DNA of 64,000 nucleotides from Candidatus Woesebacteria bacterium GW2011_GWB1_33_38 (GTDB taxonomy: Bacteria > Patescibacteriota > Microgenomatia > UBA8517). The stretch's first letter is position 1. Each line of letters opens with the position of its first letter. Shown piece after piece: positions 23,087 through 63,852 of this stretch. The notes below the pieces were generated by a model that was given only the letters and a program-made list of their open reading frames with translations, searched no databases and was not told the DNA's origin. Where the stretch lies: the NCBI GenBank assembly GCA_000990005.1, contig LBPF01000001.1, positions 26,315 through 90,314 of the forward strand, read 5' to 3'. The translations under genes were made by a program, and so were the position numbers.

Positions 23087-24208
23087 ATGAGTAAAATAGT
23101 TATTGTTATGCCTGCCTATAACGAAGCTGAAAACATTGGCAAGATGATTGAAGCTTTGTTTAATGAAGAATTTCCAAAAATAAAAGATACCGAGATGCAC
23201 TTACTTGTTGTAGATGATTATTCTCCAGATAAAACAGGTGATGTAGTTAAAACATATCAGCAAAAATACAAAAATCTACATTTGTTGCAAAAACAAAAAG
23301 AAGGGTTGGGCTGGGCGTATATAAGAGGCTTTCAATATGCAGTAAATACATTACAAGCAGATGCAGTTATGGAAATGGATGCAGATTTCCAACATCCTCC
23401 AAGATTCGTTAAACCAATGGTTGAAGCTTACTTATTAGGAGCGGACTATTGTATTGGTAGTCGCTATATAAAAGGTGGATCTGTCCCCAAAGAGTGGGCT
23501 TTTTTTAGAAAGGCGATTAGTTTTTTGGGGAATTTGTTTATAAGAATTGTCCTGACTAAATTTAAGATCCATGATTTAACAACAGGTTTTAGATTGACAA
23601 GAGAAAAGGGAGTTCTTGATCAAATTGATCTAGATCATTTAATGGAGCCGACTAGATTTGCTTATAAAGTTGATCTTTTGTACCAATCTATAAAACTTTC
23701 TAAAAAAACAGTTGAGGTGCCTTTGGAGTTTGCTTCCCGAACAATGGAGAAATCGAAATTTAACCCTAAAGAAATGGTTTCTACTTTTAAAGTTGCCGTA
23801 ATTTTAGGAATTAAGGATAAACAAAAGTTAATTAAATTTGGAACTGTGGGTTTTGTTGGATATTTAATTAATGCATTCTTTTTGAATTTCTTTTCTAAAT
23901 CAGGTTTTCCTGAATGGGCATCATGGGGATTATCTACTGAACTTGCAATTATTAACAATTTTACCTTGAACAATCTTTGGACATTTAAAACAGATGAAAT
24001 TAAGGGAATTGGAAATATTGTAAAGAAGTTTTTACAATTTAACTTTACTTCGCTCGGTGCACTTTTGATTCAAACAGTATTGGGAACAATTGGAGTTTAC
24101 TTTCTAGGTCCAGACAAGAGACAGCTTTTATTACCTTTCATCATTGTGTTTGTAGTACTTCCGTATAACTACTTAATGTATACGAAGGTGATTTGGAAGA
24201 AAAAATAG
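23087..24208 (+). CDS. GT2 polyprenol-phosphate glycosyltransferase (DPM1-like) fused to a C-terminal GtrA-like 4-TM domain
   Basis: The catalytic N-terminus carries VMPAYNEAENI and DDYSPDKT, and a D-A-D (DAD) motif follows. The C-terminal region has four TM helices. Confidence 0.75.
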   Translation: MSKIVIVMPAYNEAENIGKMIEALFNEEFPKIKDTEMHLLVVDDYSPDKTGDVVKTYQQKYKNLHLLQKQKEGLGWAYIRGFQYAVNTLQADAVMEMDADFQHPPRFVKPMVEAYLLGADYCIGSRYIKGGSVPKEWAFFRKAISFLGNLFIRIVLTKFKIHDLTTGFRLTREKGVLDQIDLDHLMEPTRFAYKVDLLYQSIKLSKKTVEVPLEFASRTMEKSKFNPKEMVSTFKVAVILGIKDKQKLIKFGTVGFVGYLINAFFLNFFSKSGFPEWASWGLSTELAIINNFTLNNLWTFKTDEIKGIGNIVKKFLQFNFTSLGALLIQTVLGTIGVYFLGPDKRQLLLPFIIVFVVLPYNYLMYTKVIWKKK

Positions 24209-24362
24209 TTGATTCACCCCTTACTTCAATTGGTTTTTCATCATCTTGGCAACCTTGATGTTTTGATCTTGGGGGAAAGATTTTGGTATCACAGTGGGGA
24301 CACACTTCACCAACAAGCGCATACCTCTGTTTTTTTAATCTCCAATGCCTTGGAATTTCCAT
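24141..24362 (-). CDS. Small Cys-containing (CPHC...C) zinc-ribbon-like ORF; it may be spurious
   Basis: The only support is the ORF itself and a CxxC pair. It overlaps the 3' end of the GT2 gene on the opposite strand. Confidence 0.2.
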   Translation of the reverse strand: MEIPRHWRLKKQRYALVGEVCPHCDTKIFPPRSKHQGCQDDEKPIEVRGESTIFSSKSPSYTLSSYTEVLQTQ

Positions 24363-24407
24363 ATCAGCATATAGTTAGTCTGAAGAAAACTAAAAAACCC
24401 ATGGAAT

Positions 24408-61572: not shown

Positions 61573-63196
61573 ATTAATATTAATATTAGCCCTCGCATTT
61601 TTTTTAAGATTTTACAAAATTACTTCAATTCCTCCATCCTTAAATTGGGATGAGACCTCAATTGCTTATAATGCATATTCAATTTTAAAGACGGGGAGAG
61701 ATGAATGGGGACAGTTTATGCCTGTTCACTTTAAATCATTTGGAGAGTATAAACTACCTGCTCAAATATATGCATCAATTCCGGGAGTTGCCATCTTTGG
61801 ACTAAACGAGTTTGGGGTTCGCATCACCCCTGTTGTTTATGGAACTTTAACAATATTTCTTTTATATCTTTTAGCGCAGGAACTGTACAGAAAAAGATAT
61901 ATTTCTTTAATTTCGGCATTTCTTTTAGCTGTTTCTCCTTGGCACATTCAACTTACTCGCGCTTCATTTGAATCATCATTCTCTTTATTTTGGTTTTTGC
62001 TGGCCTTACTGTTTTTAGTTAAAGGTTTAAAAGAAAAAAAATGGATTATTGTTTCAATGGTTCCGTTTGTAATTTCGGTCTATACTTACAACACAGCAAG
62101 AATTTTTACACCATTGTTCTTGTTTGTTTTTTATCTATTAAATTTTAATTTTTTCTTGAAGAATCTTAAATATTTAGCATTTAGCTTTTTAGCATTTATA
62201 TTTTTAACTTCGCCCATTATACCTTTTGTTCTTTCGGGAGATGCCTCTGCACGCTATAAGTTAGTTAGTATTACAAATGATAAAGGACTAATCCCTAGAA
62301 TTGAAGAAAGAAGAAATTTATCAAAATTATCACCTATTTTTACAAAATTAATTCATAACAGATATACATATAACACATATTATTTTAGTCAAAACTATCT
62401 TGCCCACTTTAGTCCAAGTTTTTTATTTCTTAAAGGTGCTGGTCATCACCAACATCATGTTCAAGGTGTTGGTGAGCTATATTGGTTCCAAGCCCCATTT
62501 TTATTGTTTGGTATTTTTGTACTGTTAAAAAAGAAAGATCTTAGTTTAAAAATATTACTGCCATGGTTACTGTTATCGTTTGTGCCTGTTTCTATGACCA
62601 ATGATAGTATTCCCAATGCACTTCGCACCTTAATTGCTGCCCCTGTTTATCAGATTTTTACTGCAGTTGGTATATATGAATTCATACAAAAGACTAAAGA
62701 CCAAAGACTAAAGACTGCAATAATCGCGACAACAGTTGCTCTATTTATAATTAACTTTTGTATATTTGCAACTAATCTCTATACCCTATACCCTATACGC
62801 TATTCTCGAGACTGGCAATATGGGAACAAACAGGTTGTTGAATATATAAAGGATCATATGGATGAGTACAGTTTAATTGTTTTTACAAGACACTATGGAG
62901 AACCACACATTTTTACACTTTTCTATTTAAAATATGATCCAGCCAGATTTCAGAACAGTTATAATTTAGAGAGGTTTGAAACTTTTGATTGGGTAAGAGT
63001 ACTAAGATTTGATAGATTTTATTTTCCTGACCTAGGGGATGAAGGTACAAAATATCAAGATGTCATTAAGGCAAATAAAGGCAAAAAAATATTATTTATT
63101 GGAAAACCTGGTGATTTCCCACCTGAGGCCAAAATACTTGAAAAAATTTATTTCCTAAACGGTGAACCAGCATTCGAAATAACAAATAATCTATGA
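61562..63196 (+). CDS. GT-C-fold membrane glycosyltransferase (ArnT-like), paralog family E
   Basis: The first-loop motif is LRFYKITSIPPSLNWDETSIAYNAYSI. It contains the heptamer repeat at 62771-62805. Confidence 0.6.
   Translation: MKSKLILILALAFFLRFYKITSIPPSLNWDETSIAYNAYSILKTGRDEWGQFMPVHFKSFGEYKLPAQIYASIPGVAIFGLNEFGVRITPVVYGTLTIFLLYLLAQELYRKRYISLISAFLLAVSPWHIQLTRASFESSFSLFWFLLALLFLVKGLKEKKWIIVSMVPFVISVYTYNTARIFTPLFLFVFYLLNFNFFLKNLKYLAFSFLAFIFLTSPIIPFVLSGDASARYKLVSITNDKGLIPRIEERRNLSKLSPIFTKLIHNRYTYNTYYFSQNYLAHFSPSFLFLKGAGHHQHHVQGVGELYWFQAPFLLFGIFVLLKKKDLSLKILLPWLLLSFVPVSMTNDSIPNALRTLIAAPVYQIFTAVGIYEFIQKTKDQRLKTAIIATTVALFIINFCIFATNLYTLYPIRYSRDWQYGNKQVVEYIKDHMDEYSLIVFTRHYGEPHIFTLFYLKYDPARFQNSYNLERFETFDWVRVLRFDRFYFPDLGDEGTKYQDVIKANKGKKILFIGKPGDFPPEAKILEKIYFLNGEPAFEITNNL
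62771..62805 (+). repeat. Degenerate heptanucleotide tandem repeat ACTAATC TCTATAC CCTATAC CCTATAC GCTATTC
   Basis: It lies in-frame and encodes TNLYTLYPIRYS. Confidence 0.75.
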
Positions 63197-63852
63197 AAAT
63201 ATATAATAAATTATTTTTAGCATCGTTTACTGCATATGTAGTCGATGATCTAGTTAAATTTATTAACATATTACCGAAAAAGGTTTCTATTGCTTTTATT
63301 TCGACCGCAGCTGATCCATATCAAGACAAATGGTTTGTCGAAAAAGATAAAGAAGCCTTACTAAATAAAGGATTTAAAATAACCGATGTTGATATTAAGA
63401 ATAAAAAAGAAAAAGTGTTATATAAATTGCTTGTAAATTTTGATTTGATATTTGTATCTGGTGGAAATGCATTTTATTTATTAGAAAAGTCTCTAGAAAG
63501 CGGTTTTGATAAAGTAATTAAAAAATTGTTGCGAAAAGGTTTGATTTATGTTGGGAGTAGTGCAGGATCAGCAATAGTTGGTCCATCGTTGGAAGCGGTA
63601 ATAACTTTAGATGATCCAAAACTAGGACCGAATCTAAAGAACTATAACGGATTTGGTATTGTAGATTTTACAATACTGCCTCATTATGGTGATCCGAAGT
63701 ACGAAGGTCGATATAAGAAGATTGTTGGCGATTTTACCAATTCTAAATATAAAGTTATTCCACTTACAAATCAACAAGCAATTCAAGTAGTAGGCGATGA
63801 TTACAAAATTATAGAGTCAAAGCAAACAAGTACTGCTGTACTAGTACAATGA
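63193..63852 (+). CDS. Peptidase S51 (dipeptidase E-like / class I glutamine-amidotransferase-like)
   Basis: The motifs FVSGGNAFYLL and GSSAGS are present, and the size is PepE-like. Confidence 0.6.
   Translation: MKIYNKLFLASFTAYVVDDLVKFINILPKKVSIAFISTAADPYQDKWFVEKDKEALLNKGFKITDVDIKNKKEKVLYKLLVNFDLIFVSGGNAFYLLEKSLESGFDKVIKKLLRKGLIYVGSSAGSAIVGPSLEAVITLDDPKLGPNLKNYNGFGIVDFTILPHYGDPKYEGRYKKIVGDFTNSKYKVIPLTNQQAIQVVGDDYKIIESKQTSTAVLVQ

Follow-up and report, generated by a model that had tools for sequence, protein, structure and literature searches.

A locus dense in GT-C membrane glycosyltransferases, probably serving envelope glycosylation, in Woesebacteria and other Microgenomates

Several described systems can be compared with the locus reported here, a run of membrane glycosyltransferases of the GT-C fold packed into about 40 kb of Candidatus Woesebacteria bacterium GW2011_GWB1_33_38, within the 64,000-nucleotide stretch that was analysed (contig LBPF01000001.1, positions 26,315 to 90,314; hereafter the window, to which all coordinates refer). 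Archaeal Agl N-glycosylation uses AglJ, AglG, AglI and AglE, the flippase-associated AglR and the oligosaccharyltransferase AglB, together with AglD and AglS. To our knowledge, the Mpt/Emb/Aft/PimE set is the only well-known bacterial case in which at least ten GT-Cs use polyprenyl-phosphate sugars for envelope glycans, and in mycobacteria these GT-C genes are dispersed through a genome that exceeds 4 Mb. PimE is the GT87 member of this mycobacterial and corynebacterial envelope set (PMC12041525). In three- and four-component systems a GT2 enzyme makes a sugar linked to the C55-phosphate carrier (C55-P), GtrA or Wzx flips it, and a GT-C transfers it outside (PMC9574508, PMC11127046). Gram-positive precedents are the three-component GtrA/B/X and four-component GacI/J/K/L systems and, for a rhamnose-rich wall polysaccharide, WpsA-J of Lactococcus lactis, in which WpsA/B and WpsC-F assemble an oligosaccharide on C55-P, WpsG (Wzx) acts as its flippase, and the GT-Cs WpsJ/WpsI transfer or polymerise it (PMC9574508). 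In a pentofuranose system, a polyprenyl-phosphate-sugar synthase works with a MATE flippase and a GT136 GT-C (PMC11127046). Patescibacteria, commonly portrayed as highly streamlined, have a reduced gene content for sugar derivatives and polysaccharides (Tian et al., PMC7137472), and 14 of the 35 protein families that are over-represented in Microgenomates are predicted to be membrane-localised, the enriched families being mainly hypothetical proteins (Méheust et al., PMC6744442). Full-text literature searches, which were not exhaustive, returned no account of this locus or of a GT-C expansion in the Candidate Phyla Radiation (CPR).

Open reading frames (ORFs) of at least 150 aa in the window (GC about 32%) were translated and scanned against Pfam and NCBIfam. 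The glycosylation locus extends from 23087 to 63196 (about 40 kb); 63193-63852 encodes an S51 peptidase, and we therefore place the end of the locus at 63196, which keeps the start and the size proposed in an initial annotation of the sequence but not its right-hand limit of 63852. The locus comprises 15 GT-C genes (16 ORFs), eight GT2 genes, one GT4 gene, a Wzx flippase, a methyltransferase, a GDSL hydrolase, two short-chain dehydrogenases (SDRs) and an ornithine cyclodeaminase (OCD)-like enzyme. Pfam bears out what had been assigned as a Wzx, a Zn-ribbon S-adenosylmethionine (SAM)-dependent methyltransferase, an SGNH hydrolase, two SDRs and an OCD-like enzyme, whereas the soluble or peripheral glycosyltransferases come to nine (eight GT2 and one GT4) and not to the at least ten, nine of them GT2, first proposed. 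GT-C ORFs account for 22.4 of the 40.1 kb (56% of the bases) between 23087 and 63196 and, because of this coverage and because the arrangement is conserved in 80 other species, the clustering of GT-Cs is not due to chance. From 25584 to 58332 nearly every gene lies on the + strand and abuts or overlaps its neighbour, suggesting a few long operons; neither a tRNA nor an Rfam element was found in the whole window. We propose that the locus probably encodes an extracytoplasmic, lipid-carrier-dependent envelope glycosylation machinery with two layers, a core oligosaccharide operon and a set of satellite GT-C modules. The gene content (lipid-sugar-synthase-type GT2s, a GtrA-type domain, Wzx, rml genes and rhamnosyltransferase-like GT2s) also fits the earlier suggestion of an elaborate surface glycoconjugate or protein glycosylation system.

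The 15 GT-C genes, referred to below by their first coordinate, are the following (AF2, AlphaFold2).

24408-25562, - strand: GT-C family F, Gpi18/PIG-V-like short form; no Pfam match, assigned by AF2 and Foldseek.
26285-27736, + strand: GT-C family A (PMT_2), GDEGRD motif; PMT_2 47.6 bits, cut-off 26.1.
28610-30066, + strand: GT-C family A, split gene (28610-29533 and 29506-30066); N-terminal part PMT_2 34.2 bits.
30802-32175, + strand: GT-C family A (PMT_2); PMT_2 34.4 bits.
34844-36376, + strand: GT-C of PMT_2/PMT type, VDE motif; PMT_2 35.9 bits, PMT (PF02366) 29.6 bits, cut-off 22.7.
37802-39424, + strand: GT-C family E, NDE motif; BLASTP to 60103 2e-17 and to 61562 2e-13; orthologues PMT_2 20-24 bits.
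40259-41914, + strand: GT-C family B, GHDGVWH motif, C-terminal globular domain; AF2 and Foldseek; directly downstream of Wzx in most relatives.
49588-51252, + strand: GT-C family C1 (PTPS_related/YfhO-like), RWVPD motif; PF10131 24.6 bits, cut-off 26.4; 38% identity to C2.
51230-52846, + strand: GT-C family C2; no Pfam match of its own, homologues mostly PF10131.
52834-54462, + strand: GT-C family C3; PMT_2 18.7 bits; 29% identity to C1 and C2 over the full length.
54459-55583, + strand: GT-C family D1 (GT87-like); GT87 28.6 bits, cut-off 25.
55483-56775, + strand: GT-C family D2 (GT87/PIG-M-like); GT87 21.5 bits.
58334-60160, - strand: GT-C family B paralogue B2, SAHGHDGTWH motif; 33% identity to 40259 over 550 aa, E 1.6e-67.
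60103-61572, + strand: GT-C family E, YGDE motif; PMT_2 24.3 bits; 33% identity to 61562.
61562-63196, + strand: GT-C family E of PMT_2/PMT type, NWDETS motif; PMT_2 43.6 bits, PMT (PF02366) 31.2 bits, cut-off 22.7.

The evidence for these assignments falls into three tiers. Six genes exceed a Pfam gathering threshold (PMT_2 for 26285, 28610, 30802, 34844 and 61562, and GT87 for 54459), with 34844 and 61562 also passing that for PMT; six more (49588, 51230, 52834, 55483, 60103 and 37802) score below threshold and are supported by paralogues or orthologues; and three (40259, its paralogue 58334 and, also on the - strand, 24408) have no hidden Markov model (HMM) match of their own. By a crude hydropathy count each candidate has 4-13 strongly hydrophobic segments, and the AF2 models of 40259 and 24408 each contain more than ten membrane-length helices. 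BLAST groups the proteins into six sequence families: A, E (linked to A), B, C, D and the singleton F. The family C trio of 49588, 51230 and 52834 shares 29-38% mutual identity (BLAST), and most family C homologues carry PF10131, with YfhO (PF09586) or STT3 (PF02516) in a few. The orthologue of 55483 in related locus L031 scores 34.1 bits for GT87 and 28 for PIG-M, and 61562 has a weak phmmer match to ArnT (5ezm, E 0.013). For 24408 (AF2 model with pLDDT 79 and pTM 0.85) the top 30 Foldseek matches are all of the GT-C fold and almost all glycosyltransferases (STT3, AglB, PglB, ALG12, ArnT and GPI-MT-I, plus PIG-U); PF13231 occurs in some of its homologues, and 'Gpi18-like mannosyltransferase' is the name given to one. 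None of the window GT-Cs matched PF02516 (STT3), the only signal being an 18-bit TIGR04154 match for 60103, and neither 34844 nor 61562 matched the MIR or PMT_4TMC domains of Pfam.

An acidic motif is positioned directly past the first transmembrane (TM) helix in all 15 candidates, in what is expected to be the first extracytoplasmic loop (GDEGRD, YDQGRD, DADQE, VDE, NDE, GHDG twice, QDD...VPD three times, HSD/HPD, FDG, YGDE and NWDE). The identification of all 15 membrane proteins as GT-Cs is thus supported by HMM, paralogy or predicted fold, with catalysis being predicted. The initial annotation had counted at least 15 polytopic GT-C-like proteins in five families, A to E. That number holds, with one of the genes split, and not one of the proteins was reassigned by HMM to a non-glycosyltransferase family; the five families stand, although BLAST adds F as a sixth, and the motifs first singled out (GDEGRD, GHDGxWH, RWVPD, HxD and YGDE/NWDETSI) were all seen just past the first TM helix. 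Frameshift or phase variation was considered for the orthologue of 37802 in related locus L002 (7380-9013) and rejected, as the interruption consists of N characters that fill a scaffold gap in a near-identical contig.

The flippase and the soluble or peripheral glycosyltransferases are as follows.

23087-24208, + strand: GT2 with fused GtrA/DPMS TM domain, polyprenyl-phosphate-sugar synthase type; GT2 4e-26, GtrA_DPMS_TM 2e-16; NCBIfam PgfS, AglJ and ArnC below cut-offs.
25584-26288, + strand: GT2, polyprenyl-phosphate-sugar synthase type; GT2 1.5e-30; NCBIfam AglJ, Dol-P-hexose transferase, ArnC and PpgS.
30059-30805, + strand: GT2, polyprenyl-phosphate-sugar synthase type; GT2 1e-26; NCBIfam best PgfS (82.6 bits), then ArnC and AglJ.
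36376-37842, + strand: Wzx/MOP-family flippase; Polysacc_synt_3 8.7e-57; NCBIfam MOP flippase, TuaB and O-glycosylation flippase.
41877-42770, + strand: GT2, core position +1 after B; GT2 1.5e-19; orthologue directly after B in 69 of 80 loci.
42728-43678, + strand: GT2, rhamnosyltransferase-like, core position +2; Pfam GT2; TIGR01556 76.9 bits, below cut-off; synteny.
43663-44385, + strand: GT2-like paralogue of 41877, core position +3; GT2 23.4 bits, cut-off 23.3; BLASTP to 41877 3e-21.
44352-45392, + strand: GT4-type (GT-B fold), core position +4; Glycos_transf_1 1.8e-23; synteny.
45401-46333, + strand: GT2; GT2 1.2e-25; partial rhamnosyltransferase match.
46330-47193, + strand: GT2, rhamnosyltransferase-like; GT2 1.6e-28; TIGR01556 63.5 bits.

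Three of these, 23087, 25584 and 30059, resemble one another (BLAST) and at the level of enzyme class are putative polyprenyl-phosphate-sugar synthases. Since genes of this type are co-located with the GT-Cs, we infer that the latter use lipid-phosphate-linked sugar donors. Two of the putative synthases overlap the downstream GT-C by 4 nt (25584 with 26285, and 30059 with 30802), and a GT2 of this type abuts a downstream GT-C in 38 of 65 cases in related loci. No free-standing GtrA was found among the small ORFs of the window. The partial NCBIfam matches of 42728, 46330 and 45401 to rhamnosyltransferases, taken with the rmlBCD genes upstream of the locus, suggest a rhamnose-containing product.

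To compare related genomes, we carried out a profile-guided scan for family B with one genome per species, which found the family in 224 genomes, and analysed the best 80 by searching 10 kb on each side of the family-B gene (21.6 kb) with the window proteins. A core order of Wzx, B, GT2, GT2, GT2-like and GT4 recurs: Wzx is directly upstream of B in 64 of the 80 loci (within 300 bp in 61), and orthologues of 41877, 42728, 43663 and 44352 follow B in 52. Across the related loci 985 of 1012 matched ORFs are co-directional. The satellite GT-Cs differ among species, typical arrangements being A-GT2p-A-C before Wzx and C-C-C, D or E after; for families B, C and F, sequences from many species share 50-80% identity, and dozens of positions do not vary. 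The 54 full-length loci contain a median of 7 GT-C genes (range 3-10), with GT-C ORFs covering a median of 47% of the bases, and the equivalent 21.6-kb stretch of this genome contains 6. GT-C-dense loci therefore recur across Microgenomates species, and the density at first called exceptional is so in comparison with bacteria in general but not within the lineage. The record titles of the 80 name Woese-, Blackburn-, Ames- and Shapirobacteria, Microgenomates or 'Patescibacteria group'. Possession of the locus is not confined to this genome, and its core spans the Woese-, Blackburn-, Ames- and Shapirobacteria. Loci L007, L014, L016, L018 and about 25 others are titled 'uncultured Gammaproteobacteria bacterium', and one 'Clostridia bacterium'; as these records have the Microgenomates-type Wzx-B-GT2 synteny, the labels look wrong (mislabelled or mis-binned).

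The core GT-C, family B, is encoded by 40259, whose product shows 100% identity to UR39_C0001G0082, a protein of the metagenome-assembled CPR/Patescibacteria genome Candidatus Woesebacteria bacterium GW2011_GWA1_33_30, and is also encoded on groundwater metagenome contigs (PRJNA268031). It matched no Pfam or NCBIfam model, including PF02516 (STT3) and PglL/Wzy_C, and none of the 120 close family-B homologues listed has a precomputed Pfam domain; the UniRef label is 'Glycosyltransferase RgtA/B/C/D-like domain-containing'. The family has 1660 cluster representatives among 1.84 billion, and no relative was found on viral contigs. Searches with families B and C against PDB chains, both as single sequences and with a profile, gave only noise, and structure prediction was therefore used. 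The AF2 model of 40259 (pLDDT 85, pTM 0.88) matches STT3, DPY19, AglB, PglB, AftA and AftD in Foldseek (E 8e-10 to 9e-4, TM-score 0.42-0.55), and the C-terminal domain is weakly similar to the C-terminal globular domain of AglB (3vu0, E ~0.05, TM-score 0.5). D42 is invariant across 25 aligned sequences; H41, W45, H46, N70-H72, R272 and R313 also count among the residues of family B that do not vary. Families B and C are weakly linked by hhalign (76.6% probability, E 2e-5), and F is linked to neither. A functional connection between Wzx and B is supported by P0392, a natural fusion of Wzx, an unknown domain and B in one ORF. We considered and rejected family B as a canonical N-oligosaccharyltransferase, as it has neither a WWDxG motif nor an STT3 HMM match; its predicted STT3-like fold and C-terminal globular domain may still fit an oligosaccharide-transferring role.

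Lengths of 740-1640 aa are seen in about one quarter of the top family-B representatives (P0362, P0380, P0392 and 38 others; also in loci L027, L038, L073 and L083). In those long examples that were inspected, a signal anchor precedes an extracytoplasmic N-terminal domain of ~430 aa with the motifs NPVRG...ATWLLR...VGAWWID...VADQ.STD; this domain lacks relatives in Pfam or PDB and does not occur in the window. We asked whether the extension might be a window-type GT-C or Wzx joined to B; with one protein as the exception the idea was rejected, and the extension is an extracytoplasmic soluble domain.

In the core of the proposed two-layer machinery, cytoplasmic GT2 and GT4 enzymes would build a short oligosaccharide, probably containing rhamnose, on a polyprenyl phosphate carrier, Wzx would flip the lipid-linked oligosaccharide, and the family-B GT-C would transfer or polymerise it onto an acceptor outside the membrane. 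In the satellite modules the three GT2s of DPM1/GtrB/ArnC/PgfS type would make polyprenyl-phosphate monosaccharides, and the other 13 GT-Cs (PMT_2, PTPS/YfhO-like, GT87-like and Gpi18-like) would attach or extend sugars at the outer face. Tailoring of the product in this lineage may fall to the methyltransferase, GDSL hydrolase, SDRs and OCD-like enzyme. As acceptor we favour, as a guess, a secondary cell-wall glycopolymer, perhaps together with surface proteins.

Several observations weigh against this interpretation. The host is uncultured; gene identities, GT-C folds and conserved synteny are established here, and the donors, the order of the steps, the acceptor and the product are deduced. 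Most of the specific functional similarities found with NCBIfam are below the curated cut-offs. Bac_transf and Glycos_transf_4 (initiating phosphoglycosyltransferases of the WbaP/WecA type) had no match among ORFs of at least 150 aa, although such a gene may be elsewhere in the genome, and Wzy_C, Wzz, LytR_cpsA_psr, WaaL and an ABC exporter were likewise not found among these ORFs of the 64-kb window; lacking an initiating phosphoglycosyltransferase, Wzy, Wzz, WaaL and LCP in the window, the locus is not a canonical Wzx/Wzy pathway. The WWDxG motif (W[WYF]D[YWFN]G) occurs in none of the 15 GT-Cs. Family F, which has no C-terminal domain, also matches STT3 first, with much weaker E-values, such that the STT3-like matches of the family-B model appear only partly specific. 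Finally, the split family-A gene could be a pseudogene.

Other genes within the locus are the following.

27733-28722, + strand: DHH/DHHA1 phosphoesterase inside the operon; Pfam DHH and DHHA1.
32312-33055, + strand: SGNH/GDSL hydrolase, possible glycan O-acyl esterase or transferase; Lipase_GDSL_2 39.6 bits; in none of 80 related loci.
33355-34092, + strand: short-chain dehydrogenase; adh_short 3e-28.
39357-40274, + strand: Zn-ribbon and SAM-dependent methyltransferase; Methyltransf_23 5.8e-22, N-terminal CxxC...CxxC.
47200-48210, + strand: ornithine cyclodeaminase/mu-crystallin family enzyme; PF02423 5e-64; in none of 80 related loci.
48230-48988, + strand: short-chain dehydrogenase; adh_short_C2 2e-50; lineage-specific accessory.
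56768-57340, + strand: 190-aa single-TM protein; no family match; in 3 of 80 related loci.

The DHH gene at 27733 sits between two GT-Cs, with a 4-nt overlap upstream and a probable overlap downstream, and a relative lies near family B in 15 of the 80 related loci, none of which contains the GDSL, SDR, OCD, RhuM or PIN-like genes. The OCD enzyme and its neighbouring SDR (47200-48988) directly follow the GT2 block. Among the fetched loci the OCD-like gene was detected only in L001 and L002, whose contigs are near-identical to the window, and this restriction of the OCD and SDR genes suggests a lineage-specific modification. Toxin-antitoxin-like and mobile-type genes are mixed among the sugar genes at 16896-18300, 34129-34837 and 57325-58332 (a HepT/MNT pair, a DUF3800 gene, a small ORF with a PIN-like 178-aa protein, and a RhuM-family gene, 341 bits, which sits within the GT-C array); around family B in the 80 other species, none of those in the window was detected.

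Upstream of the locus are genes for nucleotide-sugar supply.

3204-4190, + strand: GalE, UDP-glucose 4-epimerase (nucleotide-sugar supply); TIGR01179 396 bits, cut-off 262; Pfam Epimerase.
12615-13508, + strand: sugar-1-phosphate nucleotidyltransferase, GalU-like; best match TIGR01099 (galU) 258 bits, cut-off 327; rmlA_long 89 bits.
13505-15397, + strand: RmlB, dTDP-glucose 4,6-dehydratase; TIGR01181 395 bits, cut-off 365, over residues 2-323 of 630.
20950-21546, + strand: RmlC, dTDP-4-dehydrorhamnose 3,5-epimerase; Pfam PF00908, 4.7e-35.
21543-22436, + strand: RmlD, dTDP-4-dehydrorhamnose reductase; Pfam RmlD_sub_bind, 2.6e-49.

The initial annotation had placed rmlBCD, galE and galU here, and rmlB, rmlC, rmlD and galE are indeed clear, whereas the proposed galU is only GalU-like and below cut-off; as for an RmlABCD set, this sole nucleotidyltransferase scores 258 bits as GalU and 89 as RmlA. 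Neither the C-terminal extension of RmlB (~300 aa) nor the 323-aa ORF at 15213-16184 that overlaps the RmlB ORF has a Pfam or NCBIfam match. Further upstream (5641-11243) is a cluster of secreted proteins beside a sortase (10088-10582). One of these, of 1046 aa, has a proline-rich N-terminus and 30 N-x-S/T sequons, a density of 2.9 per 100 aa versus ~0.5 for most other ORFs; two smaller ones, at 5641-6876 and 10644-11243 (- strand), have N-termini that look alike by eye. The secreted proteins near the sortase are candidate glycosylation acceptors.

Such proteins could also be the acceptors of a general protein glycosylation system, in which family B is a new oligosaccharyltransferase acting en bloc on S-layer, pilin or sortase-anchored proteins, and the PMT-like GT-Cs O-glycosylate proteins or lengthen protein-bound glycans, in parallel to archaeal AglB/AglS and to Pgf of Streptococcus mutans. 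The best structural matches of family B are STT3, AglB and PglB, with E-values down to 8e-10, and its C-terminal domain has the weak 3vu0 match; 34844 and 61562 exceed the Pfam PMT threshold, and the lipid-sugar-synthase-type GT2s are nearest to PgfS and AglJ. A sortase and the sequon-rich 1046-aa protein are encoded upstream, although many sequons are expected in Asn/Ser/Thr-rich surface proteins at 32% GC. Likewise, the structural similarity is tempered by STT3 entries also heading the family F match list, by the lack of PF02516 or PglL/Wzy_C matches in family B, and by the lack of WWDxG in all 15 GT-Cs. On balance we regard general protein glycosylation as a serious, though unlikely, alternative.

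A related proposition, which we put forward only tentatively and think improbable as it stands, is that family B founds a new oligosaccharide-transferring class of GT-C, confined to Microgenomates, that would serve a lineage-wide system for envelope or protein glycosylation as its en-bloc transferase or polymerase. It is based on the invariant GHDGxWH loop, the STT3-like two-domain fold of the model, the missing WWDxG motif, and the position of B, nearly always with Wzx immediately before it and four soluble glycosyltransferases after it, and in one case fused to Wzx. If this were true, the surrounding GT-Cs would diversify the surface glycan from strain to strain, with possible consequences for how these episymbionts attach to hosts or evade phages.

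It is also conceivable, although we consider it distinctly unlikely, that the locus builds polymers in the mycobacterial style, with the GT-Cs elongating or branching a lipoglycan or wall heteropolysaccharide from polyprenyl-phosphate sugars as PimE, MptA/B/C, EmbA-C and AftA-D do. Only the Corynebacteriales offer a precedent for 15 GT-Cs in six families; GT87/PimE-like members are present, AftA and AftD are among the structural matches of family B, and a mere three lipid-sugar synthases accompany the many GT-Cs. However, no sequence-level kinship to Emb, Aft or Mpt was detected, and the conserved Wzx with soluble GT2 and GT4 enzymes points to a unit built inside the cell. This explanation moreover overlaps that of a two-layer machinery and does not exclude it.

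The split family-A gene has a frame change that yields two overlapping ORFs, whereas orthologues in most species are single ORFs of 480-515 aa. The same split is present in two independently assembled Woesebacteria metagenome-assembled genomes (MAGs; L008 871-2354 and L009 15-614), and the gene is either a true two-piece gene or a shared pseudogene. That many of the 15 GT-Cs are redundant, decaying or non-catalytic, so that the complexity is overstated, is very improbable: one gene is split, the interspersed toxin-antitoxin-like and RhuM genes suggest a plastic region, the satellite set varies among species and the GT-C fold includes the non-transferase PIG-U, which is among the matches, but the acidic motif is kept in all 15, families B, C and F are strongly conserved and have dozens of residues that never vary, three MAGs preserve the two halves of the split gene, and tiny CPR genomes would rarely retain 22 kb of dead genes.

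One major activity of this lineage, not described so far, appears to be cell-surface glycosylation by a lipid-linked machinery. With the genome size of ~0.9 Mb taken from related complete genomes, the ~40 kb given over to lipid-linked surface glycosylation represent roughly 4-5% of the genome, such that a surface glycan would be a major investment of organisms that are thought to be host-attached. The analysis also assigns a class of function to several 'dark' membrane families of Microgenomates, and defines a six-gene core cassette (Wzx, B, GT2, GT2, GT2-like and GT4) that is now testable.

Compared with the Gtr, Gac and Wps systems, the locus has a synthase-type GT2 beside a GT-C of divergent sequence, as they do, with the GtrA_DPMS_TM domain of 23087 and the Wzx at 36376 as candidate flippases, and the combination of a Wzx, GT-Cs and several soluble glycosyltransferases mirrors WpsC-F, WpsG and WpsJ/I, with rml genes and rhamnosyltransferase-like GT2s nearby. 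It differs from the Wps and Gac systems in having 15 GT-Cs in one locus as opposed to 1-3, in a core GT-C that matched no Pfam or NCBIfam model, in a host that is a CPR bacterium with a genome of ~0.9 Mb, and in that a GacJ/WpsB-type activator, a rhamnan ABC exporter (RgpC/D), an LCP ligase and a Wzz-like WpsH were not seen in the window. The pentofuranose system (PMC11127046) likewise pairs a MOP-superfamily flippase with a GT-C bearing a C-terminal extracytoplasmic domain, but it attaches a single side-chain sugar with one synthase, whereas here the flippase/GT-C pair is conserved with four soluble glycosyltransferases.

The resemblance to archaeal Agl lies in GT2 assembly on a polyprenyl monophosphate, a Wzx-like flippase, a transferring GT-C, and a separate Dol-P-sugar synthase with a GT-C for the final sugar, and the family-B fold is nearest to STT3/AglB; in contrast, the present system is bacterial, has no WWDxG motif or STT3 HMM match, and has far more GT-Cs. 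With the mycobacterial set it shares GT87-like members, although no Emb, Aft or Mpt orthology is detectable and the GT-Cs are here packed into 40 kb of a ~0.9-Mb genome. The components are of known kinds, and the novelty lies in how many there are, how they are packed, their conservation in a streamlined lineage, and a core GT-C family that no Pfam or NCBIfam model matched.

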